Source of the DNA: an uncultured Chloroflexia bacterium
GTDB lineage: Bacteria > Chloroflexota > Dehalococcoidia > GIF9 > UBA5629
NCBI GenBank assembly: GCA_963751585.1
Contig: CAVVVB010000003.1
Span: 8,667 to 72,666 of the forward strand
Direction of reading: 5' to 3'
Length of the DNA: 64,000 bases
In this document: in pieces, positions 973 to 21,146 of the stretch
How positions within the stretch are numbered: the stretch's first letter is position 1
Layout of the letters: every line of letters starts with the position of its first letter
Notes under the pieces: model-generated
The model's input: only the letters and a program-made list of their open reading frames with translations
Database searches by the model: none
What the model was told of the DNA's origin: nothing
Program-made: the position numbers and the translations under genes

Positions 973-3129
973 TTAAGAACTGAGACTGGCTTTGGCCTGG
1001 CTAGTTCTCGTGGCGCTTATAATGCCACGCAGGCCCTGGATTTTGGCCAATAACTGAGTTAACTGTGCCATGCTGGTGATTTCAATGGTAGCGAATATTG
1101 AGGTGACCTCATGGTGATATGTGCTGCTCATACTGGATATATTCACCTTGTTCTCAGCGATAACAGTAGTGACATCGCGAAGCAGGCCCACTCTATCCCA
1201 GGCATCTACCTGGATATCCACCGGATAGACGTCCTGAATCTCTCCCCAGCTTACTTCGATGAGTCGCTTCTTGTCCTCGACATTTATGACGTTTATGCAT
1301 TCCTTGCGGTGTACCGTAATTCCGTGGCTCCGAGTAATATAACCTATGATGTGGTCGCCTGGCAAGGGATTGCAGCAACGGGCTAATTGGGTAAGCAAGT
1401 CACCTACGCCTAGGACCTGAATTCCTGCCGTAGTCGTCTTTTCTGCCTTTGCGGTTTTGGTTATGTCCTTGGTTTCTTCTGGTTCCACCGCCAGCTTGAG
1501 CGCTAACTGGTGCGGAGTGACGCCGCCGTAGCCAATGGCGGCCAAAAAATCGTCGGGGTTTTCGTAGTTGAATAGACGCGCCGTTTCTTCAATGTTGGTT
1601 ATGGTTATGCCCAGCCGTTTGAGGTCTCTATCCAGAATCTGCCTGCCGCGTTCGATATTCTGTGTCCGCTCTTGTTTCTTAAACCATTGCCTGACTTTTT
1701 CTCGGGCGTGCGAGGTCTTGATAAAGCCCAAGTCAGGATTGAGCCAGTCAAGGCTGGGTCCTCTGCTGACTTTGGTGGTCATAATCTCGATGATATCGCT
1801 GTTTTTCAGCTCGTAGTTTAGCGGGACTAGTCTGCCGTTGACTTTAGCGCCTATGCAGCGATGCCCCAGCTCGGTGTGGATACGATAGGCGAAATCAAGA
1901 GGTGTGGCGCCCTTGGGCAGCGCTTTTATTTCACCTTGGGGGGTATAGACAAAGACCTGGTCGATAAAAACCTCTGTTTTTAACGATTCGAGAAATTCCT
2001 CGCTCCCGAGCTCTCCCTGCCACTCGATTAGCTGGTGTAACCAGGCAATCTTGTCTTCAAATTTTGTGTCTTCGCTGGAACCCTCCTTATAACGCCAGTG
2101 CGCGGCTATACCGAAAGCAGCCGTCCGGTGCATATCATAGGTACGGATTTGAATCTCCAGCGGAGTTGTGCCCTGGCATAATACAGTGGTGTGCAATGAT
2201 TGATATCCGTTATCTTTAGGATTAGCGATAAAGTCGTTGAACTCTTCCGGAAGCGGATGCCATAGGTTGTGGATGGCACCCAGCGCTTTGTAGCAATCCG
2301 GAATTGTGTCTACCAGCACCCGAACAGCGAACAAGTCATGAATATCGCTGAAGTCTCTGCCTTGCTCTGCATAGCGGTTAAGTTTATTGTAAATACTGTA
2401 AAAATGTTTTGGTCTGCCTATGATTTCTGCCTTTATATCGGCTTTGTCTAACTCTTGCTTCAATGTTTTAGTGATCTCGGTTATGAATGTCTCTCGCTCG
2501 GCTCGGCGAGCCGCTATCAGCCGGGCCACTTTGTGATATTGCTGTGGCTCTAGATAGCGGAAGGCTAAATCTTCCAGCTGCCATTTTATTTGCCAGATAC
2601 CAAGGCGGTGGGCTAAAGGCGCATATATCTCCAGTGTCTCCTGCGCGATGCTCCGCCGTTTTTCGGGTGACAACGCTCCAAGGGTATGCATGTTGTGTAG
2701 TCGGTCGGCCAGCTTGATGAACACCACTCTCAAGTCCGCGGCCATAGCGATCAACATTTTTCGCAGGTTTTGAGCTTGGGATTCGCGTTTGCTGGCTTCA
2801 CCGCGATGCAAAGATAGTCTGCCCAGCTTGGTAGTGCCATCAACCAGTTTGCTCACTTCCGGGCCGAACTTAGCTTCGATTTTGGACAGGGGTATTCCGC
2901 AATCTTCGGGGACATCGTGCAGCAAAGCTGCGGCCAAGGTAGCAGCGTCAAGCTGGAGGTCAGCTAGCGTGATAGCCGTCTGTAATGGGTGTTCCATATA
3001 AGGATCGCCAGACTTTCGCAGCTGCCCCTTATGGGCATTCAGAGCAAAGTCGTAGGCTGACTCAATTAGAGCAATTTTGCCTGCAGGCATATATTCTTTG
3101 GCTTTTTCTATGAGGGCACCGGCGTCCAT
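973..3129 (-). CDS. rel: Bifunctional (p)ppGpp synthetase/hydrolase, RelA/SpoT family
   Basis: 718 aa. An N-terminal HD hydrolase region (HDVPEDCG), a RelA/SpoT synthetase domain, and TGS and C-terminal ACT-like regions are all recognisable in the translation. Confidence 0.95.
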   Translation of the reverse strand: MDAGALIEKAKEYMPAGKIALIESAYDFALNAHKGQLRKSGDPYMEHPLQTAITLADLQLDAATLAAALLHDVPEDCGIPLSKIEAKFGPEVSKLVDGTTKLGRLSLHRGEASKRESQAQNLRKMLIAMAADLRVVFIKLADRLHNMHTLGALSPEKRRSIAQETLEIYAPLAHRLGIWQIKWQLEDLAFRYLEPQQYHKVARLIAARRAERETFITEITKTLKQELDKADIKAEIIGRPKHFYSIYNKLNRYAEQGRDFSDIHDLFAVRVLVDTIPDCYKALGAIHNLWHPLPEEFNDFIANPKDNGYQSLHTTVLCQGTTPLEIQIRTYDMHRTAAFGIAAHWRYKEGSSEDTKFEDKIAWLHQLIEWQGELGSEEFLESLKTEVFIDQVFVYTPQGEIKALPKGATPLDFAYRIHTELGHRCIGAKVNGRLVPLNYELKNSDIIEIMTTKVSRGPSLDWLNPDLGFIKTSHAREKVRQWFKKQERTQNIERGRQILDRDLKRLGITITNIEETARLFNYENPDDFLAAIGYGGVTPHQLALKLAVEPEETKDITKTAKAEKTTTAGIQVLGVGDLLTQLARCCNPLPGDHIIGYITRSHGITVHRKECINVINVEDKKRLIEVSWGEIQDVYPVDIQVDAWDRVGLLRDVTTVIAENKVNISSMSSTYHHEVTSIFATIEITSMAQLTQLLAKIQGLRGIISATRTSQAKASLSS

Positions 3130-5497: not shown

Positions 5498-6636
5498 GGT
5501 TTGAAACTCTGGCCATTCATGCCGGGGAAAGACCGGACAAGGCATTCGGTGCCATGTCGGTGCCCATATATCAGACGTCGACATTCGCCTTTGAGGATGT
5601 GGGCAAGACGAGAGGCTATGACTACTCACGCACCTCCAATCCAACGAGAAAAGTTCTGGAGGATACCATCGCCGCATTGGAAGGTGGGAAGGCCGGATTT
5701 GCCTTCGCTACCGGCATGGCCGCTGAGACCACAGTGGCGCATCTTTTGAAGGCGGGCGACCATGTGATTTCGAGCGACGATGTCTATGGGGGAACGTACA
5801 GACTGTTTCAAAATGTGATGTGCGACCTGGGGTTGGAATTTACTTTTCTCAGGATGAACACCAGGCAGGCTGTGGAACGCGCCATAAAACCAAATACCAG
5901 GATGATATGGATAGAGACCCCTTCTAATCCGTTGCTCAATATTACCGACCTGGAGATGGTAGTTGACATTGCCAACAAGCATGGCATCTTGACGGTTATA
6001 GATAATACCTTCGCCACTCCTTATTTCCTTAGACCTATAGAATATGGGGTTGACCTGGTCGTGCATTCCACTACCAAGTATCTGAATGGACATTGTGATG
6101 TTGTCGGTGGTGCTGTAGTAACCACCACCGATGAATTGACCGAGAAGGTCCAGTTTCTGCTCAACGCTATGGGCACCTGTGCCTCGCCTTTCGATTGTTG
6201 GCTGGTGCTTCGTGGTATAGAGACGTTGCCTATAAGGATGGAAAGGCACGAGGAAAATGCTTCGGCTGTGGCGAACTACCTTCAGAAGCACAAAGCCGTC
6301 CGCAAGGTGTTTTATCCCGGAATCAAGTCTCATCCCGGACATGATATAGCCAGAAGGCAGATGAAAGGATTTGGAGGTGTGGTTTCCTTCGAATTAAAGG
6401 GCGGTTTGGAAGCAGCCAGTAGCTTTCTGCGAAAGTTAATGGTGTTCTCCATTGCGGAATCGCTGGGTGGGGCTACCTCCCTGGCTGAGCATCCGGCAAC
6501 GATGAGTCATGCCTCGATGCCATCTGAATACAAGGCCAAAATAGGTATAGGTGATGACCTGATACGATTATCAGTGGGCCTGGAGAATATTGAGGACTTG
6601 ATTGCTGATTTGGCAGAGGCTTTGAAGCCAGAATGA
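5494..6636 (+). CDS. Cys/Met-metabolism PLP-dependent enzyme (cystathionine gamma-synthase / beta-lyase / gamma-lyase family)
   Basis: 380 aa. The N-terminus [11 protein letters not shown] and a conserved PLP-lysine region (STTKYLNGH) match this family. Its start overlaps the cysE stop, so the two are in one operon. Confidence 0.85.
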
Positions 6637-10115: not shown

Positions 10116-11342
10116 TTGTCATATGCCACAGGTTTGCGTTGTCGCAAATGTGGGCAAGAGTACCCCTTACAGCCTGTAAGGGTCTGTGATTTTTGTCTCA
10201 GCCCGGTAGAGGTCAACTACAACTATAAGGCGATGGCCGGTTCCATCAGCCGTGAGAAGATCTCCAAAGGGCCTTCAAGTGTGTGGCGCTACCGTGACTT
10301 GCTCCCTGTCGAGGGCGAAGAAGAGATCGACATAGGCGCCGGTTTCACGCCTCTGCTTAAAGCTCATAATCTCGGACGGGAGCTGGGATTAGACGACCTC
10401 TATGTTAAAAACGATTGCCTTAATCCCACATATTCTTTTAAAGACAGAGCTGTCTCGGTGGCAGTAACCAAAGCCCGCGAATTCGGTTTTGACACTGTTG
10501 CCTGTGCCTCAACGGGTAATCTGGCGGCCAGTGTGGCTGCCCATGCCGCCAAGGCAAACATGAAAGCCTATGTTTTTGTCCCGGCCAGTGTAGAGCCTGG
10601 CAAGTTGATAGGTGTGGCTATATATAAGCCGAACCTGGTTACCGTCGATGGCAGCTATGACGATGTCAACCGCCTCTGTGCGGAAGTGGCACAGCGATAT
10701 AACTGGGGGTTCATCAATATAAATCTCCGGCCATATTATGCCGAAGGTAGCAAGACGCTGGGTTTTGAAGTTGCGGAACAGCTGGGGTGGCGGGCGCCCG
10801 AATGCCTGGTGGCACCGGCGGCATCGGGTCTCCTGTTTACCCGGATTTGGAAAGGTTTACAAGAGCTGTCGATGCTTAAACTAATTGGACCGGTGGATAC
10901 CCACATGTATCTGACCCAGGCTGCGGGCAGCTCGCCTATTGTCAACGCATTTCAGGCCGGTAGCCTTCATGTTCATCCGGTGACACCCAATACGCTGGTC
11001 ACTTCCATAGCCATTGGCAATCCGGCCGATGGTTACTATGCTTTGACGGTGGCTCGACAATCGGGCGGCGGTGCCCAGGCCGTAACCGATGACGAGGCTA
11101 TCGAGGGGATGAAATTGCTGGCTCGAACCGAAGGCATTTTCGCCGAGGCTGCCGGCGGAGTGGTAATTGCTGGAGTTAAGAAGCTGGTCGCTGCCGGAGC
11201 CATTAAAAAAGACCAACTTACGGTCGCTTGTATCACTGGAGCCGGCCCGAGAACACAGGAGATTGTTTCCGATGTTGTCCACTCGTTTCATGTCCAGCCA
11301 AGTCTGGAATCGTTCAGAGAGGTCCTCGGTGTGGAGGTTTGA
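10116..11342 (+). CDS. Threonine-synthase-family PLP enzyme with an N-terminal Zn-ribbon (ThrC or a ThrC-like sulfur-incorporating paralog)
   Basis: 408 aa. N-terminal CRKCG...CDFC ribbon, PLP-lysine context SFKDRAV, and the fold-type II PLP core. It is the first gene of a tight 4-gene operon. Confidence 0.8.
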   Translation: MSYATGLRCRKCGQEYPLQPVRVCDFCLSPVEVNYNYKAMAGSISREKISKGPSSVWRYRDLLPVEGEEEIDIGAGFTPLLKAHNLGRELGLDDLYVKNDCLNPTYSFKDRAVSVAVTKAREFGFDTVACASTGNLAASVAAHAAKANMKAYVFVPASVEPGKLIGVAIYKPNLVTVDGSYDDVNRLCAEVAQRYNWGFININLRPYYAEGSKTLGFEVAEQLGWRAPECLVAPAASGLLFTRIWKGLQELSMLKLIGPVDTHMYLTQAAGSSPIVNAFQAGSLHVHPVTPNTLVTSIAIGNPADGYYALTVARQSGGGAQAVTDDEAIEGMKLLARTEGIFAEAAGGVVIAGVKKLVAAGAIKKDQLTVACITGAGPRTQEIVSDVVHSFHVQPSLESFREVLGVEV

Positions 11343-11635: not shown

Positions 11636-12802
11636 ATGAAAAGAATATATCTTGACTATGCTGCCACTACGCCGACACATCCAGAAGTATTGAAGGCGAT
11701 GTTACCCTATTTCACCGATTCCTTCGGTAATCCTTCCAGCATACATTCATATGGCCAGGAAGCCAGGGACGCTATTGAAAAGGCGCGAAATCAGATCGCA
11801 GCTCTTATCAGTGCCAGAAGTGAGGAGATTGTGTGCACTGGCAGTGGCACTGAAGCCGATAATTTCGCGCTGACTGGCGTCGCCTTGGCCCGGCAGGCCA
11901 AAGGAAATCATATTATCACCTGTGCCATCGAACATCACGCCGTGTTGGAAACCTGTAAGTTCTTGCAAAAACAGGGAGTCGCGGTTACCTATCTTCCCGT
12001 GGATGGTTATGGCAGAGTTGACCCGGATGATGTCAAAAAGGCAATCACCAATAAAACTGTCCTGCTATCAATAATGCATGCCAATAATGAATGCGGCACT
12101 ATTGAACCAGTTGCAGCCATCGCCAAGATTGCCCGTGAGGCTGGGGTTTATTTTCACACTGATGCCGTGCAGACAGTAGGTCATATTCCGGTGAATGTAA
12201 ATGAGTTAGGCGTTGATCTTCTGTCCAGTTCCGGGCATAAGCTTTATGGGCCCAAGGGCGTAGGTATACTCTATATCAGAAAAGGTACTAAGATAAGCCC
12301 GTTTATGCATGGTGGCGGCCAGGAGAAGGGAAGGCGGGCCAGTACTGAGAACGTGCCAGCTATTGTGGGCTTCGGCCAGGCCGCCGAAATAGCACGGCTA
12401 GAGATGCTCGAAGAAGCTCGGAGATTGACCGCTATGCGCGACAGGCTAGTCGACGGCATACTCCAGAGCATTGAAGGCACGCAGTTGAATGGCCATCCTA
12501 CGGCCAGGCTGCCCAACAATGTAAATGTCAGCGTTGACTATGTGGAAGGCGAATCGATGCTGTTGAATTTGGATTTAGCTGGAATCTGCGTCTCCACGGG
12601 CTCAGCCTGTAGCTCGGGAGACGCTGAACCATCGCACGTTTTGATGGCGATGGGGCTGCAGCCTTTACAGGCACACGGCTCTTTGCGATTTACCTTGGGT
12701 AAATGGACTACCGAGCAGGAAATAGACCACGTGCTGGAGGTGCTGCCCGGGATCATCTCCAAGCTCAGAGCTATGTCCCCTCTCATGAAGACCTCAAGCT
12801 AA
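11636..12802 (+). CDS. Cysteine desulfurase (NifS/IscS class V aminotransferase)
   Basis: 388 aa beginning MKRIYLDYAATTP. PLP-lysine region SSSGHKLYGPKGVG and the active-site loop SACSSG. Confidence 0.9.
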   Translation: MKRIYLDYAATTPTHPEVLKAMLPYFTDSFGNPSSIHSYGQEARDAIEKARNQIAALISARSEEIVCTGSGTEADNFALTGVALARQAKGNHIITCAIEHHAVLETCKFLQKQGVAVTYLPVDGYGRVDPDDVKKAITNKTVLLSIMHANNECGTIEPVAAIAKIAREAGVYFHTDAVQTVGHIPVNVNELGVDLLSSSGHKLYGPKGVGILYIRKGTKISPFMHGGGQEKGRRASTENVPAIVGFGQAAEIARLEMLEEARRLTAMRDRLVDGILQSIEGTQLNGHPTARLPNNVNVSVDYVEGESMLLNLDLAGICVSTGSACSSGDAEPSHVLMAMGLQPLQAHGSLRFTLGKWTTEQEIDHVLEVLPGIISKLRAMSPLMKTSS

Positions 12803-13898: not shown

Positions 13899-14044
13899 CT
13901 TCCTCACTTCTGTAAAGACAGACCTCAGCATAGTCTCATTCGACCAACCGAGCCGAGAACGGTATAATATGAATATATTTTGTCTTTCCGCGCCATATGA
14001 AAGTTGGCTGCGTATCGAATGTTGAAATGGTTAGGAGTTGATCT

Positions 14045-14479
14045 ATGGCCAAGATAATTGCCGTCTGCAAGAGTGATAAAAAGGGGACTACGAAGGAAGA
14101 CGTGAAGGAAGGGATGTTGGAGAAGGACTTCGGACTCGTTGGCGATGCCCATGCTGATTGCTGTACTCACCGGCAGGTGAGTTTGCTGGCTGTAGAGAGC
14201 ATCGACAAGATGCGAGCACTGGGTCTGGATCTCAAACCCGGTGATTTTGCTGAAAATCTGACCGTCGAAGGTATGGATCTGGTGTCTTTGCCGGTGGGCA
14301 CACAGGTTTCGGTGGGGAAAGATGTTCTCCTTGAGATCAGTCAGATCGGCAAAGAATGTCATAGCGGCTGTGCTATCTTCAAGCAGGTGGGCAAGTGCAT
14401 AATGCCTAAAGAGGGGATATTCGCTCGGGTAATTAGAGGCGGTCCGGTTAAGACCGGGGACCGGATAAAGGTATCATAA
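14045..14479 (+). CDS. MOSC-domain protein (Mo-cofactor-sulfurase C-terminal-domain family)
   Basis: 144 aa. A beta-barrel MOSC-like pattern (GDAHADCCTHRQVSLLAVES...GENLTVEG...G) and a conserved Cys. Confidence 0.75.
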   Translation: MAKIIAVCKSDKKGTTKEDVKEGMLEKDFGLVGDAHADCCTHRQVSLLAVESIDKMRALGLDLKPGDFAENLTVEGMDLVSLPVGTQVSVGKDVLLEISQIGKECHSGCAIFKQVGKCIMPKEGIFARVIRGGPVKTGDRIKVS

Positions 14480-14500
14480 TCCACTGCATCCCGGCAGTAG

Positions 14501-15433
14501 ATGGGGCCAACCATGAATAGGGAGTCGGAGCTAACCGACAAAATCTCAAGCTTAAAGGTCAAAAGAAATGCCGTTATCCTTGCCCACAACTATCAGTTGG
14601 GTGAGATTCAGGATATAGCCGATTTCGTCGGCGATTCCTTGGACCTTAGCCAGAAAGCGGCTAAGACCGATGCCAGCGTCATAGTCTTCTGCGGAGTTCA
14701 TTTCATGGCGGAGACGGCTTCGATACTCTGCCCCGAAAAGACGGTCCTGCTTCCCGATGTGAATGCCGGCTGCCCGATGGCTAATATGATCACGGCCCCC
14801 CAGCTTCGCGCCAAGAAAAAAGAACACCCGGGGGCTGTCGTGGTCTGCTACATCAATTCCTCAGCAGCGGTGAAGGCGGAGTCCGATGTTTGCTGCACCT
14901 CCGCCAATGCGGTTAAGGTCGTGGAAAGTCTGGATGCGGAGGAGATAATTTTTGTTCCCGACCAGTACTTGGGCAATTATGTCTCGACCAAAACTGGCAA
15001 GAAACTGATTCTCTGGCCCGGTTTTTGTCCCACTCACGCGCGGATACTGCCCGAACATATTGCCAAACTCAAGCAGGAATATCCTGAGGCTAAGGTGGTG
15101 GTACACCCCGAATGTAAACCGGGAGTCATCGCTCTGGCTGACGCGGCTTTGAGCACCAGCGGCATCATTAAATTCGCCGCTCGGGAAGATGTCAAAGAAA
15201 TGATTGTGGGAACAGAGATGGGCATAATCCACCGCCTCAAGAAAGAGAATCCGGGCAAAAGGTTTATTCCCGTTTCCGAGCAGGCGGTATGCCCGAATAT
15301 GAAATTAATCACTCTGGAGAAGGTCTTGTGGTCCCTTGAAGAAATGGCACCACAGGTTAAAGTGCCGGAAAAGATCCGTCTCAGGGCAAAGGCTGCCGTT
15401 GATAAAATGCTGGAGATAGGCAGGAGCGATTGA
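14501..15433 (+). CDS. nadA: Quinolinate synthase A. The start is either ATG 14501 or ATG 14513.
   Basis: 310 aa. NadA motifs (ILAHNYQ, VFCGVHFMAETA and three conserved Cys for the 4Fe-4S cluster) are present. Confidence 0.85.
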   Translation: MGPTMNRESELTDKISSLKVKRNAVILAHNYQLGEIQDIADFVGDSLDLSQKAAKTDASVIVFCGVHFMAETASILCPEKTVLLPDVNAGCPMANMITAPQLRAKKKEHPGAVVVCYINSSAAVKAESDVCCTSANAVKVVESLDAEEIIFVPDQYLGNYVSTKTGKKLILWPGFCPTHARILPEHIAKLKQEYPEAKVVVHPECKPGVIALADAALSTSGIIKFAAREDVKEMIVGTEMGIIHRLKKENPGKRFIPVSEQAVCPNMKLITLEKVLWSLEEMAPQVKVPEKIRLRAKAAVDKMLEIGRSD

Positions 15434-15759
15434 GCGATACCGGGGAGGTAGTTGTTTTCGTTACCGCCAGCTCGGAGAAAGAAGCTCAAAAGATATCCGA
15501 GCTATTACTTGGACGGAGAAAGGCCGCCTGCGTAAACATAGTTCCCATGGTGGATTCGTCTTTTTGGTGGCAGGGCAAGCTGGATTCAGCCCGTGAAAGC
15601 CTGCTGATTATCAAGACCAAAGCCTCGTTGCTGCCTGAAATCATTGATATGGTCAAAGAGGCGCACGGCTACGAAGTCCCGGAGATAATCGCTCTGCCCA
15701 TAGTCGGCGGGAGCGAAGATTACCTGAACTGGATAGACAGCGAGGTTAGAGAGAGCTGA
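15430..15759 (+). CDS. cutA: Divalent-cation tolerance protein CutA
   Basis: 109 aa. Typical CutA1 fold sequence (VVVFVTASSEKEAQKISELLL...YEVPEIIALPIVGGSEDYLNWI). Its start overlaps the nadA stop. Confidence 0.85.
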   Translation: MSDTGEVVVFVTASSEKEAQKISELLLGRRKAACVNIVPMVDSSFWWQGKLDSARESLLIIKTKASLLPEIIDMVKEAHGYEVPEIIALPIVGGSEDYLNWIDSEVRES

Positions 15760-15765
15760 ACACTT
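15690..15765 (+). repeat. The cutA 3' end, which recurs as two degenerate direct copies at 19335..19420 and 19468..19512 (att-like island boundaries)
   Basis: gagataatcgctctgcccatagtcggcgggagcgaagattacctgaactggatagacagcgaggttagagagagctgaac is seen almost identically at 19335-19420 (gaaataatcgctcttcacataatcggtggaaatgaagactacctgaactggatcgacagcgaggttagaggagctgaac). A shorter copy lies at 19468-19512. Confidence 0.85.
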
Positions 15766-15908
15766 CGTCATAAAGTGCAATAGTGGTATTTACATTGACA
15801 AGTTTGATTACTCCAAAGGGCTTGTAGGCAAGGAAGCTATAACCAATAGATGTGGATAGATATATGTTAGAGATTACTTGAAGAATGAAGGTATTGTCAT
15901 GAGGCTAT

Positions 15909-16781
15909 TCATGTATATAACTTTACAAAACCCGCCTTAAAGTCGGTATGTTTCATGCCAAGCAAAACAAGAATAGAAGCACGTACAAGCGCTCTTCCGG
16001 CTGTGCGTGTCTCTTGGGCATTCGCCTCACTAAGTCGTGATAGTTGGCCGTCATGAAAGCCATCATTTCTTAACTTATAGAGATCATTAAGCCTAGGAAT
16101 CGCGGGAAACTGTTGATCCACGAGCAATGACTCCACTTTTTGAAACTTATTTCCGGGCTTGCCTAGAAAATTTGCCTGTGACTCAAGACATACCCAATTC
16201 AGAGCAGCTTCAACCAACGGTCTTCCGATCTCGAATTCTCGTAGGGCACTAAAAAACCACTGCATCGCCAAACGAAGTCGCGTTTCTTCAATTGTTGGAA
16301 TAATACTTAGTGCTTTCTCGAAGTTGTCTGTCGCTTTATCGGGCGGTGCAGCAAGTTCATGAAATCCCTCGCCACCTGTAACAAAGGCTAGAGATGAAGA
16401 CCAGTCTGCCACAGATTTTCTTGTTTCCCTCCACAAATATTGACAGCTCCCGCCAAAATAAATAGACGTGAATGCAAGTAAATCATCTATGATAGTCCTA
16501 TCGCTGGATGGTTCAAAAACGGAATCATTAGGAGGGATGCCGTAATATTCGATCACTATCGCTGCGTGTTTGAGACAATAGTCCACATCTGAAATTTGTG
16601 CTTTGGGAGTTAGAAGGGGATTAAATCCATAGGAAGATTCGTAAGAGAAATCACTTGGTTTTAGGATATACCAATTTCTCTTACTTAAAAATGGTGCAGC
16701 AAACTTTGTCCACCAGATTGTATGTGGCGCATTAACTATGTATCTAATGAATGGTTTGGGGGCCGTGACAATCTGTGTCAC
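15909..16781 (-). CDS. Hypothetical protein (island cargo)
   Basis: 290-aa ORF in the low-GC insert. No family recognised by eye. Confidence 0.5.
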   Translation of the reverse strand: MTQIVTAPKPFIRYIVNAPHTIWWTKFAAPFLSKRNWYILKPSDFSYESSYGFNPLLTPKAQISDVDYCLKHAAIVIEYYGIPPNDSVFEPSSDRTIIDDLLAFTSIYFGGSCQYLWRETRKSVADWSSSLAFVTGGEGFHELAAPPDKATDNFEKALSIIPTIEETRLRLAMQWFFSALREFEIGRPLVEAALNWVCLESQANFLGKPGNKFQKVESLLVDQQFPAIPRLNDLYKLRNDGFHDGQLSRLSEANAQETRTAGRALVRASILVLLGMKHTDFKAGFVKLYT

Positions 16782-16935
16782 AATGCACTCTCGTAATTAG
16801 GTCGGTCACTTATACAAGTTATACTGTTGGTCTTACACGTCAGTTTACCATGCTGTGATCGGCGCAACAACTGCTGCTGAGCAATAGAAGGCAACAAATA
16901 GCCAGAAGGTGACATTTGTAACCGTTGGAGAAAAC

Positions 16936-17832
16936 TTAATTATTTAATAGCATTCGCCTCATTTGTTTGACTTTTATGTTCCAGCCGTTCTTTTCAATTG
17001 CGCTGTGTAATTGCTCGATATTCTTCTTAGCTAATTGAGAATATCCTCCGGCAACAACAATGCCTTCTACACTACTTTCATCGCGGGCAATAAGAATGCT
17101 ATTAGGCATGGGGTCATCGGTATTATCAAATAATCCGAGTTGCTTTTTTTGCTCGTAATTTTTTTGGTAGCAGGTTGCGTAATCATTGATATGTTCTCTG
17201 ACGTGTTGAACGTAGTCGTTTACCTGTTTGCCTGCCTTCTCCCGAAGTTCTGGATTTCTTCCCAGCTTAATCTCAAGGACAACGAAATGATACTTTCCTG
17301 TCTCTCCACGTTTTAGTGCTAACAGGTCAACTCTAGCCCAATTGAGATGGTCCGCGACCTGGCGGTCAATGATAAAAAAATCAGGGTTAGGAGGGTTATC
17401 TGTAACGATGACTTGCTCCATCGTTATCTCTTCACCATTGTGCACCTTTCGTATCTGCCCACTGATGCGATCCAGATGATTCCTCTGAAAGAAGCGATGT
17501 AACTTGTCGCTTTGGATATTGAAACTAATGTATTCTCCACTAAATCGCCGGTTTAAAGAACAAGCTTCAAGCTTTTTATATATGTCATCAGAGATAAATT
17601 TCTTGTGTATCTTCGCTGTGTAGGTTCGACTCATCGTTTTTGGTGTTACCTGGGCAACTGAATTACCTTGGTAGTAAATATTGAAGCAATCCTGCCGGAT
17701 TTGAAGGTTGTATTCTTCATTCGAATTATTGATGAGTTTGACAACAGGTTTGAGGTCTTTCTTTATCATCTCCCAATCTTCATCCACGTGGCTAAAGAAA
17801 CGGTCAATAGTTCGTATGTAATTTGTGCTCAT
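16936..17832 (-). CDS. Hypothetical protein with a PD-(D/E)xK-nuclease-like motif (island cargo)
   Basis: 298 aa. The region FFIIDRQVADH...GKYHFVVLEIKLG fits a D...(E)xK restriction-endonuclease-fold active-site pattern. Confidence 0.45.
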   Translation of the reverse strand: MSTNYIRTIDRFFSHVDEDWEMIKKDLKPVVKLINNSNEEYNLQIRQDCFNIYYQGNSVAQVTPKTMSRTYTAKIHKKFISDDIYKKLEACSLNRRFSGEYISFNIQSDKLHRFFQRNHLDRISGQIRKVHNGEEITMEQVIVTDNPPNPDFFIIDRQVADHLNWARVDLLALKRGETGKYHFVVLEIKLGRNPELREKAGKQVNDYVQHVREHINDYATCYQKNYEQKKQLGLFDNTDDPMPNSILIARDESSVEGIVVAGGYSQLAKKNIEQLHSAIEKNGWNIKVKQMRRMLLNN

Positions 17833-17859
17833 TCTTTCCTCCTAAGAGTGGCGATAAGA

Positions 17860-19149
17860 TTACAGGATTAATTCCTGACCATCATCAACTAGGATAACAT
17901 TAGAGAACATCTCATTGAACCTTTCGGGATAGAAAGTGTGGATCGGGATAATGAATCTCGGTTTAAGAGCTTCACTGATATCTCTCAAATGCTGAAGAAC
18001 GGCATGACCACTTGTGTGTATCTCCGATAATTCAATACCACGTTCAGCTAAAAACTCAGGCAGATTATTTCTTTCAAGATACCCGTGCCACATCGAGTAG
18101 ACAGTTGTCGCTTCACCACACTTGGTTATCAAGCTACGGTAGAACCGATTATCCTTGGACAGGACGACTTTATTTTCAGGCTCGATGTAAATCTCCTTTG
18201 GTTTTATCCTATGCTTGGCATATTTATACAGGAGCTGTTCATCCAGTTTCGCCAGTTTTTGGGCATGGTGATGAAGAAAGAAGACCCGCACGTTGTCCCA
18301 ATTGAATTGGGGGATATTCGGTGACAAGTCACGGAGCTTTTCAAGAACGAATGCCGTATACAAGTCTATTATGAAAGTTCTATCGGACTTCTTTGCTGCT
18401 CGATATATAGATACGATGCGATCTAGGTTCTGCGACGATGTAAAGACAAAGCAGATTTTCTTATCGACTCGCATCTTGTGAACCAGTGCTTCTTCAACAG
18501 AGGTTTCGTCAGGATAAAGCCCCTCTTCTCTACCGATCATCGAGCCTTCCATGATCAGATAATCTATGTTCTCAGGAGGTTGCTTTATCAACCTTTCAAG
18601 TAAGATCTTTTTCCTTCCGTGACCGCGGAAATCACCCGTATAGAATATCCTCTTCTGGTCATGTTCTATGAGAAATGCAGCGGCGTCAGGAGCAGAGTGA
18701 TCCATGAGATATGGAGTGATGGTGAAACCGCTGATTTTAAAAGGTCTCCACATCATAAACGTTTTGATATTAACAACATTGATATTAGCTTCGATGAAGA
18801 GGTTTGACACTTCAGCTAATGACTTGGTTCCCCTGCTCATATATATGGGGATATCCGGTTGAACGAATTGCAGGAATCCATAGTGGTCTTGATGGGCATG
18901 AGATAATAGTACCGCTGAAACAGGTGATTGACTGGAATTATAAAGGCCTTCGATAGCAGGTAATATCTTAAGATCGATCAACTGTTGAGCACTTTTCCCT
19001 TTGTGTACGCTCCACTCGAACTGTGTCCTGTCCGATTTTACTAGGGGCATACCAAAGTCTAGAATCAGTCGCGCGCCAGTAGAGTCGGAAGATATTTGGA
19101 CACAGCTTCCCCCGATTTCATGGGTGCCACGATGAATCGTGAGTCTCAC
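17860..19149 (-). CDS. Metallo-beta-lactamase-fold hydrolase (island cargo), possibly a nuclease
   Basis: 429 aa. The HxHxDH motif (LLSHAHQDHYGFLQ) and a downstream FYTGDFRGHG (Asp motif) are typical of MBL/beta-CASP-type enzymes. Confidence 0.7.
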   Translation of the reverse strand: MRLTIHRGTHEIGGSCVQISSDSTGARLILDFGMPLVKSDRTQFEWSVHKGKSAQQLIDLKILPAIEGLYNSSQSPVSAVLLSHAHQDHYGFLQFVQPDIPIYMSRGTKSLAEVSNLFIEANINVVNIKTFMMWRPFKISGFTITPYLMDHSAPDAAAFLIEHDQKRIFYTGDFRGHGRKKILLERLIKQPPENIDYLIMEGSMIGREEGLYPDETSVEEALVHKMRVDKKICFVFTSSQNLDRIVSIYRAAKKSDRTFIIDLYTAFVLEKLRDLSPNIPQFNWDNVRVFFLHHHAQKLAKLDEQLLYKYAKHRIKPKEIYIEPENKVVLSKDNRFYRSLITKCGEATTVYSMWHGYLERNNLPEFLAERGIELSEIHTSGHAVLQHLRDISEALKPRFIIPIHTFYPERFNEMFSNVILVDDGQELIL

Positions 19150-19605
19150 GCACGTATTATAATGCTGGTTATCAACTTCTTACAAACGGTGTAATTACTG
19201 CAAAAGCTATAGGGTTAAATGTATGCAAGGAATAGTAAACAAATCATCGTTTTGTGCAGGGGATGGTGTCGCTCTGCCACGAGGGCTCTTGAAATTTTCT
19301 CTCTAGGCTGGTCTAAAGCTATGAAGTCCCTGAAATAATCGCTCTTCACATAATCGGTGGAAATGAAGACTACCTGAACTGGATCGACAGCGAGGTTAGA
19401 GGAGCTGAACGTCTGGCAACTCAGATTTACTTTCACGGTTAATGTTAGTACTTCAAAATGATACCCTCGTCACAACCGTCGGCAACGGAGATTACCTGAA
19501 GCGGATAGATAACGAAGCCAGGCAGAAGCCAGCTAACCATATAAGAATGCAGAGTTGGTTGTATAATGAGAAATATAGGCACTTAGGCAGTGAAGGAGGT
19601 CACCT

Positions 19606-20064
19606 ATGATTGCAGTAGGCAGCAAGGCACATGATTTTATGTTGAGCGACCACAACGGTAAGCAGGTGACATTATCAGGCATTAAAGGTAGAAAAGTGCT
19701 GCTCTCATTTCACCCGCTAGCTTGGACTAGCGTCTGTGCCGAGCAGATGAAATCACTGGAAGCTAACTATGCACAGTTAGAAAAGCTGAACACCATAGCT
19801 TTTGGTTTGAGCATCGATTCGGTGCCCTGCAAGAAGGCCTGGGCTAAGGAGCTGGCTATTGCCAAAACCAGTCTCCTCTGTGACTTCTGGCCTCACGGTG
19901 GCGTGGCCAAGTTGTACGATATATTCAGGGAGAAGGATGGATTTTCCGAGAGAGCCAACATTGTTGTCGACGAAAATCTAAAGGTCACATTTGCTCAGAC
20001 CTATCCCATCTCCCAGCTGCCCGATATCAACGAGATCATAAAACTTCTGGACGGAAAGCGTTGA
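19606..20064 (+). CDS. Peroxiredoxin (AhpC/TSA / Bcp-type thiol peroxidase)
   Basis: 152 aa. Thioredoxin fold with peroxidatic Cys in FHPLAWTSVCAEQ and a second Cys in VPCKKAWAKE. Confidence 0.85.
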   Translation: MIAVGSKAHDFMLSDHNGKQVTLSGIKGRKVLLSFHPLAWTSVCAEQMKSLEANYAQLEKLNTIAFGLSIDSVPCKKAWAKELAIAKTSLLCDFWPHGGVAKLYDIFREKDGFSERANIVVDENLKVTFAQTYPISQLPDINEIIKLLDGKR

Positions 20065-20068
20065 TGAG

Positions 20069-20575
20069 CTAGATGAAACGTTCGAACCGGTCTTTTTTAG
20101 CCCGGCATATCGGACATAATTCAGGCGGGCCGTCTCTGGCGCATAAATAGCCGCAGACCTTACACCTCCATACCGGGAGGGGGAGTTCCACCAGGCCTTT
20201 CTGAGGTTTGGTCGCTTTCTTTGCCAGCACGTTCGCTGGCCGTCGTTCGGGTATCGATCCTATGGTCTTTTCGCCGTTGACAACCGCCTGGGAGACGTAA
20301 AGGCCGCAATAACAGGTGTCGTATTCGCTAAGGTCGGGATCTCTGTAATCGCAGGGACATATGATGTCCAAGTCCTTCTCCTTAACTCCGGAAGCCAGCC
20401 GGCACGGGCAAGCCATGTACCCGTATCGCTTCTCATTTACCAGCAGGCCTTTTACCAGGTCTTTGGTAAGCTCAACGTCCGGGTTAAGGAAATAGCTGCC
20501 GTATTGAGCGTCTCTCTTTAGTTTCTCATACCTGCTATCGATCTCGCTCCCTGTTATTGGCGGCTGATTCGTCAT
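20069..20575 (-). CDS. Ferredoxin:thioredoxin reductase catalytic subunit fused to a C-terminal rubredoxin-like domain
   Basis: FTR-B signature Cys pattern (CPCRL...CPCD...CYCGLY) plus a C-terminal CKVCGY...CPIC rubredoxin-type knuckle pair. Confidence 0.8.
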   Translation of the reverse strand: MTNQPPITGSEIDSRYEKLKRDAQYGSYFLNPDVELTKDLVKGLLVNEKRYGYMACPCRLASGVKEKDLDIICPCDYRDPDLSEYDTCYCGLYVSQAVVNGEKTIGSIPERRPANVLAKKATKPQKGLVELPLPVWRCKVCGYLCARDGPPELCPICRAKKDRFERFI

Positions 20576-20871
20576 TTCTTCAAAAGCTCCAATATTCTGG
20601 GCTCGTCAAAGCCGACTACGCACTGATTGTTTATTACCAGAGTCGGGTACGTGCACTGCGGGTTCCATTTCTTTACCACTTTGACAGTGTCATCCCTTTC
20701 TTTGCCTTGCAGCAGATCTACGTATTCGTAGTCGTATTCGACGCCCAGATCGTCCAACAGTTTCCTTGTCTTTTTGCACCATCCACACGTGCTCAAGGCA
20801 TACAGCATAACTTGACCCGCATTCTTGCCGGGAACATGTTCCACGACCATATCCACATCTCCTTTCGTCAA
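20572..20871 (-). CDS. Glutaredoxin-like protein (NrdH/YruB-type)
   Basis: 99 aa with a CGWC active site in a thioredoxin fold (VMLYALSTCGWCKK...YPTLVINN). A 4-bp overlap with the FTR gene places them in one operon. Confidence 0.75.
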   Translation of the reverse strand: MTKGDVDMVVEHVPGKNAGQVMLYALSTCGWCKKTRKLLDDLGVEYDYEYVDLLQGKERDDTVKVVKKWNPQCTYPTLVINNQCVVGFDEPRILELLKK

Positions 20872-21146
20872 AATGCCCTATCACTATTATACATTTTTGG
20901 CTAGTTTGGTATTCATTACCTGTCACGCGCATACGTGGTGTACCATAAAATCCCTCTCTTTCTCCCTTTACAAAAGGGAGACATGATCTCCCCACTTGAA
21001 GAGGGCCTCCTCTCAATTTTCTCCCCCTTAGGAAAAGGGGGACATAGGGGGATTTGAGGCGCCAGCCCTGGATTTATTGGATTAATCGCCTTGTTACGTT
21101 GCTGGAATTGGGTAAGTTAGCTAAAATAGACGTCGCGGAGGTAAAC

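Follow-up and report, generated by a model that had tools for sequence, protein, structure and literature searches.

A putative array of recombinase-less gene cassettes at the 3' end of cutA in an uncultured Dehalococcoidia bacterium

Small units of DNA that carry no recombinase gene of their own have been described in several bacterial settings. The dif (pdif) modules of Acinetobacter plasmids are small, recombinase-less and XerC/XerD-dependent (PMC6449649, PMC13141974, PMC7399989), clusters of attC sites without an integrase are known as CALINs (PMC4889954), and genomic islands stand in tandem at ssrA in Dehalococcoides, where some of the units are without integration genes, a further case being the SCC elements at rlmH (PMC3146451). 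Here we analyse a stretch of 64,000 nt (contig CAVVVB010000003.1 of assembly GCA_963751585.1; hereafter the window) from an organism that appears, judging from the closest cutA loci, to be an uncultured Dehalococcoidia bacterium. In it, a foreign-looking segment with three genes, encoding a HEPN-domain protein (P290), a putative nuclease (P298) and a metallo-beta-lactamase (MBL)-fold protein (MBL429), directly follows cutA. We observed that this segment is bordered, and divided, by three copies of a ~26-nt imperfect palindrome, and the reading that we favour as a whole, and regard as rather probable, is that of a cassette array at a docking site on the cutA stop codon, assembled by trans-acting recombination and holding cargo that is probably of a defence or conflict type.

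Likenesses to the known systems are several. With the dif modules, the locus shares units of one to few genes, similar short imperfect palindromes (arm, 6–7-nt centre, arm), shuffled contexts, cargo that is often of the toxin-antitoxin or adaptive type and a recombinase that is thought to act in trans; with integrons and CALINs, small cassettes at one primary site, co-oriented palindromic sites following the cassettes, cargo rich in unknown, toxin-antitoxin and defence genes and a nearby integrase that is sometimes absent. With the ssrA and SCC islands, the former found in the same bacterial class, it has in common the tandem accretion of low-GC DNA at the 3' end of a single-copy conserved gene, direct repeats of the target site between the units, the lack of integration genes in some units and, in two related loci (L095/L096; L numbers denote related loci throughout), a large serine recombinase beside one of the same cassettes.

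The palindromic site and the two cassettes after cutA

An earlier reading of the window, made from the letters and their open reading frames (ORFs) and here called the sequence-only reading, had pointed to a low-GC segment of three opposite-strand genes at the cutA 3' end, with no integrase or tRNA, as the product of a site-specific insertion. These claims were borne out, the insertion being best accounted for by site-specific recombination. The GC content of 15763–19317 (0.419) is below that of the 10-kb flanks (0.503 and 0.514), and the insert genes, all three on the minus strand, lie in the ~3.5 kb between the end of cutA itself (copy 1, Table 1) and a partial second copy of that end (copy 2). 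There is no tRNA in the 64-kb window and profile searches revealed no recombinase domains in the three insert proteins; tblastn with tyrosine and serine recombinase queries found no recombinase in the window either, where the ten neighbouring ORFs are housekeeping genes and not every ORF was scanned. Because its GC content is low and no recombinase was found in it, the segment looks foreign and is confirmed, as far as its composition and gene content tell, as foreign low-GC DNA at the very end of cutA. No Rfam families were matched in 14000–21000, and terminator-like matches there are at chance level.

The insert borders are formed by three co-oriented copies (S1, S2 and S3, Table 1) of a ~26-nt imperfect palindrome, TGAACAnTTCGTCAgAAaGTGCAat, whose consensus, TgAACAatTCGTCAgAatGTGCAat, is composed of 8–9-nt inverted arms (TGMACAAT/ATTGTGCA) around a 7-nt centre such as TCGTCAG. 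The arrangement of cutA next to nadA is kept in related Dehalococcoidia, and the ~22 nt past the cutA stop codon are conserved (TGAACAnTTCGTCAnAnnGTGc) in at least nine relatives (L003, L004, L006, L008, L009, L011, L039, L051 and L063), despite their differing downstream genes. A first position weight matrix (PWM) was built from the cutA flanks of eight relatives, with the window excluded, and all 127,950 window positions were scanned with it; a refined PWM was built from 27 sites. S3 is located at the right end of the nucleotide homology to L096, and S2 exactly at the junction of the two blocks of homology that make up the cargo. Several of the sites are nearly palindromic and score on both strands. 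A LexA (Cheo) box was also considered as a reading of the palindrome and was discarded because the half-site spacing is wrong.

All three sites of the window are hybrids. S1 shares 82% identity on its left with the native cutA flanks in L011 and L051; past its centre it runs on into the first cassette in the same way as L090 and L175, which are unrelated to it on the left. S2 resembles L090 and L175 in its left arm and flank, and strong sites from L097 and L096 in its right arm and flank. For S3, homology on the left is to L096; on the other side, the terminal site that L051 has at 17320 is matched with 100% identity in the centre and 82% to the right. In each of the three, one homology partner gives way to another at or near the palindrome centre, which indicates conservative site-specific recombination, of which such a switch would be the signature. 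The match to L051 DNA past the terminal site covers the 82 nt of 19226–19307, S3 included, at 80% identity, and copy 2 begins ~10 nt past its end. Since the DNA to the right of S3 is homologous to this part of L051, it is probably native, so that the insert would span ~15766 to ~19248, with the displaced cutA copies 2 and 3 outside. On this point we depart from the sequence-only reading, which had taken the cutA copies as the footprint and borders of the insert: the right border is S3, and ~70 nt beyond it are probably native.

Nor is the cargo the single three-gene island that had been supposed. The stretch 15755–16904, which contains the 290-aa gene and its flanks, is 92% identical in nucleotide sequence to L090, L091 and L092 and close to L175 and L176; in all of these the 290-aa gene stands beside a hydrolase gene, and cutA, the MBL gene and the 298-aa gene are absent. 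The stretch 16920–19258 takes in the genes of P298 and MBL429 with 108 nt upstream; it has 83% identity to L095 and L096, neither of which has the 290-aa gene. There, the MBL–P298 block is set between tRNA-Ser genes and metF, and genes for a 528-aa large serine recombinase and an 81-aa protein lie, divergently, just upstream of it. Judging from these homologies, the cargo is made up of two independent cassettes, A and B, with separate histories, joined at the internal site.

Some features of the related loci may be noted here. Terminal inverted repeats around cassette A in L175 were considered and rejected, as a 12-nt exact core is expected by chance in 9 kb. In L175 (2084–3079) and L090 (2119–3114), the HEPN gene is preceded by a gene, absent from the window, for a protein of 331 aa whose only match is a weak helix-turn-helix at the N-terminus (terminase-small-like or HTH_23). 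In L095, the stretch to the left of the serine recombinase (66–993) is a dense patch of mobile-element scars, with a C-terminal tyrosine recombinase fragment, two tRNA-Ser genes (676–766 and 806–892) whose 3' ends are the same over 27 nt, and a 19-nt unit repeated in four tandem copies (899–993).

Table 1. Features of the cutA locus, in window positions.
Feature	Positions	Strand	Evidence
cutA (anchor gene, 109 aa)	15430–15759	+	Pfam CutA1 E=1.4e-34; NCBIfam CutA
Copy 1 of the repeat, the cutA 3' end	15668–15762	+	repeat search and blastn
S1, starts with the cutA stop codon, TGAACACTTCGTCATAAAGTGCAATA	15757–15782	+	first PWM rank 1, 30.5 bits
Cassette A, one gene (290-aa HEPN-domain protein)	15783–16890	-	
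Gene of the 290-aa protein (P290, HEPN)	15909–16781	-	ORF list
S2, internal, partly degenerate, GCAACAAATAGCCAGAAGGTGACATT	16891–16916	+	refined PWM rank 3 of 127,950; first PWM 8.0 bits
Cassette B, two-gene operon MBL429 and P298	16917–19235	-	
Gene of the 298-aa protein (P298)	16936–17832	-	ORF list
Gene of the 429-aa MBL-fold protein (MBL429)	17860–19149	-	ORF list and domain matches
Promoter-like site ahead of the MBL gene	19156–19185		
S3, terminal, TAAACAAATCATCGTTTTGTGCAGGG	19236–19261	+	first PWM rank 2, 17.5 bits (next 10.3)
Spacer past the array, most of it probably native	19262–19317		L051 match; last ~10 nt (19308–19317) uncovered
Copy 2, displaced cutA 3' fragment (codons 80–109)	19318–19411	+	86% identity over 94 nt, blastn E=1.7e-22
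Copy 3, older, more diverged cutA 3' fragment	19468–19526	+	74% over 50 nt (19477–19526), E=1.9e-4
ahpC/peroxiredoxin, first conserved downstream gene	19606–20064	+	Pfam AhpC-TSA E=2.8e-28

The cutA terminus does reappear twice, as had been claimed, at positions that differ by ~10–20 nt from those first given. Coincidental similarity, named by the sequence-only reading as what would speak against it, is ruled out by the E-values of the two copies (Table 1) and by shuffling: a 37-nt degenerate core pattern (three mismatches at most) matches at two places only in the 64 kb, both mismatch-free, and none of 100 shuffles gave two matches. The repeated part, by blastn, comprises 3' portions of cutA only. 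Copy 2 has a 1-nt deletion ahead of the former stop and retains the left half-site TGAAC alone, without the centre and the right arm of the site that follows cutA in relatives. Eleven of its 27 codons differ from those of cutA, eight of them synonymously, and nine of the 12 base differences are in third positions; two of the three amino-acid changes (V to I and S to N) match the residues of relatives at those positions. Because most codon differences are synonymous and changes are shared with relatives, copy 2, which still encodes a CutA C-terminus, seems to be a piece of a different functional cutA allele and not a decayed recent local duplicate. The translation of copy 3, VGNGDYLKRIDNEARQ, is also similar to the CutA C-terminus. 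Both copies are probably older relics of other events at the locus, outside the present insert, and do not form its borders.

Two ORFs, of 55 aa (19442–19609, plus strand) and 73 aa (19215–19436, minus strand), overlap these relic fragments, copy 3 lying within the first of the two, and are most likely not genes; the 73-aa ORF is called as a gene in the public assembly (L001/L002). A fourth cutA-like fragment, at 15823–15880 within cassette A (…GGATAGATATATGTTAGAGA…) and present also in L090, was rejected: its score of 12.5 was reached by 43 of 1750 background windows and is not significant.

In the relatives, PWM matches of at least 17 bits cluster downstream of cutA and around mobile modules; none was found in the 10 kb upstream of cutA in relatives, nor in the other ~60 kb of the window. 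Downstream of cutA, co-oriented sites are present in L006 (10328, 12130, 14798, 16821 and 18154), in L009/L058 (three), in L008 (two) and in L051 (two, around kdp). The three best matches of L096 are located at 2073 and 4427, around the MBL–P298 block (just upstream of MBL and just past P298), and at 5794, after metF; strong sites adjoin the P298 or the P290 gene in L097, L093, L090, L175 and L113, and in L089 and L098 the sites lie 100–790 nt outside the gene block. Part of the cargo of the relatives' arrays is of a conflict type (a SIR2-like 624-aa protein, a MazE antitoxin with its partner, a PIN protein and a C39-like peptidase), and the remainder includes an unknown 387-aa protein with an RxxxxH motif, kdpABCD, rpoD and a zinc-ribbon/RRM pair. 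No integrases were found beside cutA in the relatives, where the first downstream ORFs of nine loci are ordinary genes. The ahpC-FTR-Grx block downstream of the cutA array is found also in L051, the sole relative with that block. In L006, a 63-nt, 98% identical repeat (R2) of the cutA end and site flanks a 1.74-kb low-GC insert; an origin of this repeat by simple tandem duplication was rejected, since identity falls from 98% in the cutA/site repeat to only 84% in the duplicated zinc-ribbon gene, and the remainder of the insert is unrelated.

Other observations concern the content and orientation of these arrays. A kdpABC-kdpD operon of ~6.6 kb directly follows cutA in L051 (10328–17345) and L004 (10330–17200) and stands, cassette-like, between the cutA-stop site and the terminal site 17320 in L051. 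The first cassette after cutA in L006 (10419–10907) encodes a 162-aa protein of three near-identical 40-aa charged repeats (…AREQARRKTDLAREQAIQKEQAARGAKREEKRIAE…); in the same locus (11071–11262 and 12433–12639), the insert's zinc-ribbon (zf_Tbcl) copy has 84% nucleotide identity to the native one, which lies just downstream, beside an RRM RNA-binding protein gene. L089 is the only case seen with two sites in opposite orientation: ~95-nt inverted repeats (~2121–2260, plus strand, and 5620–5755, minus strand; ~80% alike by eye) flank MBL–P298, with the 26-nt site central in each.

The HEPN protein and the MBL–P298 pair

The 290-aa protein, classed as unknown in the sequence-only reading, turned out to be a stand-alone HEPN-domain protein, with an Rx4-6H motif on a four-helix up-and-down bundle, and is a predicted RNase. 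In L093, its gene stands beside a type ISP restriction-modification gene. P290 was also considered as a third component of the MBL–P298 system and rejected, as it never co-occurs with the pair in ~60 other loci.

For the two proteins of cassette B, the motifs noticed previously (D...ExK in the 298-aa protein and HAHQDH in the 429-aa protein) were both recovered. The residues E135, D169 and E187-x-K189 are invariant in the P298 family and form an E...D...(D/E)xK motif on a restriction-endonuclease-like fold. P298 seems to be composed of an N-terminal alpha/beta, putative DNA-binding domain (MotA C-terminal domain/YjbR-like) and a C-terminal NucS/HamA/Shedu-like PD-(D/E)xK nuclease domain; neither the N-terminal half-barrel DNA-binding domain nor the sequence-level similarity that define NucS/EndoMS was found in it. 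Searches of Pfam, PADLOC, PHROGs and the PDB gave no sequence match for P298. Its family comprises 613 clusters at 50% identity (E<=1e-3), and for the longer homologues with extra domains Pfam was uninformative, with the exception of one PDDEXK_1 extension.

In MBL429, the HAHQDH motif corresponds to H84-A-H86-Q-D88-H89, and D31, H84/H86/D88/H89, H151, D173, E201/D243, H378/H382 and H404 are at least 97% conserved among 34 sequences. These residues presumably represent MBL motifs 1–4 (D, HxHxDH, H and D) and the beta-CASP motifs A (D/E), B (H) and C (H or V), and MBL429 is thereby predicted to be a beta-CASP MBL-fold nuclease with all catalytic residues intact. A histidine at motif C is typical of RNA-acting beta-CASP members, which is a hint and not a proof. 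The best PDB match of MBL429 is 2az4, the uncharacterised EF2904 structure (E=4e-19), followed by RNase J. It is not a true RNase J: TIGR00649 gives 82.9 bits against a cut-off of 400, over residues 8–261 only, and the protein has 429 aa against ~555, the RNase J C-terminal domain being missing. In PHROGs, it matches only a generic family of metal-dependent hydrolases.

The MBL and P298 genes are adjacent in 52 of the 65 loci with enough flanking sequence. MBL is immediately upstream of P298 in 41 loci, all with at least 42% P298 identity, and the order is inverted in 11 more distant loci (36–44% P298 identity). In P0182, a predicted protein of 469 aa from the 50% representative library, a complete P298 homologue is fused to the last 147 residues of an MBL429 homologue; this may be a genuine gene fusion, or else an artefact of read-through or gene calling. 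Neighbours of the pair within 3 kb include Septu PtuA/PtuB (L089), a type III restriction-modification-like methylase/helicase pair with an AAA_5 ATPase (L084) and a HamB-like helicase, and large serine recombinases are near the pair in three loci (L095/L096, L139 and L130). Given the adjacency, the P0182 fusion, the invariant catalytic residues and the neighbours, the pair is, by all genomic indications, functionally linked. The suggestion that a nuclease-like and an MBL protein form a plausible uncharacterised defence-type pair is therefore upheld, the two being supported as a conserved, mobile, uncharacterised pair with what looks like a defence profile.

P298-like proteins at 36–43% identity are encoded without MBL in L149, L155, L159, L163, L168 and L170, where they adjoin ADP-ribosylglycohydrolase, ARPP-1, HD-domain and DUF429 genes; the P298-type nuclease may be reused in other conflict systems.

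Proposed mechanism and rival explanations

We hypothesize that the ~26-nt palindrome that begins at the cutA stop codon is a docking site in this Dehalococcoidia clade, into which small modules, presumably circular, with one copy of the site each and no recombinase gene, would enter by conservative site-specific recombination. Each module would have entered by recombination of its own site with a site of the array, the enzyme being supplied in trans, and the empty-site junction would then be expected to consist of the left half of S1 and the right half of S3, roughly ...GAGAGCTGAACACTT-C[GA]TC[AG]TT-TTGTGCAGGGGATGG. The arm-centre-arm layout with its 7-nt centre resembles, by analogy, a tyrosine-recombinase or Xer core site; the only recombinase candidate with a physical link is the serine recombinase that adjoins the counterpart of cassette B in L095/L096. 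The two cassettes probably serve in defence against, or conflict with, mobile genetic elements. In cassette B, recognition and cleavage of target DNA would fall to P298, and the beta-CASP enzyme would digest nucleic acid starting at the break or, in an abortive response, RNA; the HEPN protein would act on its own as an RNase effector. In its widest form, the proposal is that of a previously undescribed chromosomal cassette system in a Dehalococcoidia clade, with the cutA-stop site as primary dock and recombinase-less 1–7-kb modules, many of them of defence, toxin or nuclease type, inserted, stacked and exchanged in trans, possibly by the host Xer; it would be an analogue of integrons and dif modules in a different phylum, and one of its cargoes a new beta-CASP and PD-(D/E)xK defence system. 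This wider form we offer tentatively, as a possibility that we place somewhat below an even chance.

Several observations weigh against the cassette-array reading. S3, taken alone, is modestly significant (4 of 200 Markov-simulated 64-kb windows reach 17.5 bits, a window-wide p of ~0.02); S2 by itself does not reach significance with the first PWM, which is expected to give 17.5 positions of at least 8 bits, and S1 and S3, though not S2, belong to the training set of the refined PWM. The case for S2 and S3 as borders is built on their co-location with independently defined homology breakpoints and on the other loci, and not on PWM scores alone. Neither a recombinase linked to the site nor an empty site or a circular form was observed: no empty site was found in a close relative, exact-protein look-ups of CutA, NadA, AhpC and P298 gave the same genome or sample only, and the nearest other genome has 81% CutA identity. 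Copies 2 and 3 and R2 of L006 join a cutA coding stretch to a complete or partial site, a product that simple site-by-site recombination does not give. Candidate origins for them are the integration of circles that had picked up the cutA end in their site region, or an additive, homology-anchored gain of the cutA-downstream region from a related strain, which fits the L006 insert because it has a diverged copy of the neighbouring zinc-ribbon gene. Some of the relatives' cassettes carry ordinary genes (the kdp operon, rpoD and metF), so that the site could be a clade-specific intergenic element. As to the cargo, PADLOC-DB v2.0.0 gave no match at E<=0.1 for any of the three proteins, PHROGs gave none for P290, and P298 has no match in the phage, plasmid and viral collections IMG/VR, INPHARED and PLSDB; many neighbours of the MBL–P298 pair are housekeeping genes, and the defence role is predicted from sequence.

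The direct repeats are also what would be left if a single 3.6-kb islet had entered the cutA 3' end through an attP carrying the cutA terminus, with copies 1 and 2 as attL and attR, copy 3 as the mark of a second, older event and the integrase lost later. The repeats are real and encode CutA C-termini of a diverged allele, R2 in L006 has the same form around its insert, and tandem direct repeats of the target-gene 3' end are known from the Dehalococcoides ssrA islands (PMC3146451). Nevertheless, homology to L051 past its terminal site extends over the centre and right arm of S3 and over the 46 nt that follow (19262–19307), which separate the cargo from copy 2, so that the DNA to the left of copy 2 is probably native; with the separate histories of the two blocks and the loss of site centre and right arm from copy 2, this makes a single islet quite improbable. 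We attach a similarly small probability to the palindrome being a regulatory element, terminator or regulator-binding site that is specific to the clade and often found between genes, in a mosaic produced by ordinary homologous or illegitimate recombination, where the match of borders and sites would reflect genes as units of conservation. The location of the site at gene ends, the housekeeping nature of some flanked units (kdp, rpoD and metF), the possibility of a weak hairpin and the modest statistics of individual sites would all agree with such an element, but its sequence, and not a structure alone, is conserved across unrelated flanking genes and contigs, the strong matches cluster, in the sequence available, past cutA and around mobile modules, and the homology partner switches at or near the site centre three times; the hairpins, in turn, are weak, without a T-run, and were not detected as terminators. 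An assembly or binning artefact in the form of a chimeric contig can be given next to no weight. The source is a metagenome-assembled genome, and the arrangement is carried by a single genome; however, the same 5.9-kb arrangement, from nadA to FTR, is present in a second, independent Logan assembly (L001/L002), probably of the same sample, and the junctions fall in specific conserved sites and not in long repeats of the kind that mislead an assembler.

As to function, the MBL and PD-(D/E)xK pair and the HEPN protein may also be selfish addiction or toxin modules, or mobile enzymes of nucleic-acid repair or processing, which we consider rather unlikely. The absence of PADLOC matches, a generic metal-dependent hydrolase family as the sole PHROGs match (MBL429) and the many housekeeping neighbours are consistent with this; the closest relatives in structure and sequence, NucS and RNase J, act in repair and RNA turnover, and the relatives' arrays carry toxin-antitoxin genes. 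On the other hand, the pair is patchy, low in GC and mobile, and stands in several loci beside Septu, restriction-modification genes and recombinases; distant P298 homologues occur in other conflict contexts (ADP-ribosylglycohydrolase, ARPP-1), and there is no small partner gene of an immunity-like type.

Comparison with known systems

If the palindrome is a true recombination site, it would show how streamlined uncultured Dehalococcoidia can take up and exchange accessory genes by way of mobile units that carry no integrase, and trans-moved short-site cassettes, known from integrons and Acinetobacter dif modules, would occur in a further phylum and, on the chromosome, anchored at a gene's stop codon. 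The site could also serve as a sequence handle, since a search after cutA may recover cassettes and candidate defence genes from metagenomes, and the beta-CASP and PD-(D/E)xK pair would be a compact candidate two-nuclease system, with ~600 clusters at 50% identity.

Two groups of defence systems are closest to the gene pair, and it belongs to neither. P298 resembles the NucS/HamA/Shedu-type PD-(D/E)xK sensor-nucleases (Shedu, Hachiman HamA and END nucleases; PMC12191111) without a sequence match in Pfam, PADLOC or the PDB, and, whereas the Shedu, HamA and END systems are without a beta-CASP partner, P298 usually has one. An MBL-fold nuclease encoded directly upstream of a defence-type partner or effector is shared with the MBL nuclease and protease pairs (HamM in HamMAB, Avs and Lamassu; PMC12799240) and with the beta-CASP protein Cas14 of type VII CRISPR (PMC13069675). 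HamM-type MBL proteins are ComEC-like proenzymes that are activated by a fused trypsin-like protease (PMC12799240); in contrast, P298 has no protease domain, and MBL429, instead of being a ComEC-like protein with gating insertions, is RNase J-like and of the beta-CASP type, with histidine at motif C. To Cas14, MBL429 has a weak match (E ~1e-6 over 50 residues).

As in tandem accretions and cis-mobilisable elements, the window has three co-oriented hybrid sites and no recombinase in the cassettes, and the cargo is different in L006, L008, L009 and L051. The ssrA islands differ from this locus in target (here cutA), in unit size (10–30 kb against 1–3 kb here) and in the repeat, which here is palindromic with a 7-nt centre; SCC and ssrA islands have, moreover, a CcrB/DsiB-like large serine recombinase at the island edge, and none was found in the window. 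Integron attC sites are 55–141 nt long, with R''/L''/L'/R' boxes, whereas the unit here has ~26 nt and its flanks are unconserved between sites, as judged without an attC covariance model. An intI/attI platform, characteristic of integrons though dispensable in a CALIN, was found neither among the insert proteins nor by tblastn in the window, and, unlike integron cassettes, those described here are in either orientation, may have their own promoter and can hold operons. The dif modules, finally, alternate in site orientation, whereas S1, S2 and S3 and the arrays of L006 and L009 are co-oriented and only L089 has an inverted pair; the site described here, with its arms around 7 nt, has a layout similar to the two inverted arms and 6-nt centre of dif, and it is chromosomal, at the stop codon of one conserved gene, and in the Chloroflexota. 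The 26-nt sequence is presumably not a recognisable dif consensus, and the clade's own dif may differ. The locus is thus set apart from integrons by attC and IntI, from dif modules by their alternating orientation and from ssrA islands by their resident serine-recombinase module, and it is of the kind in which cassettes are bounded by short sites and would be moved in trans.

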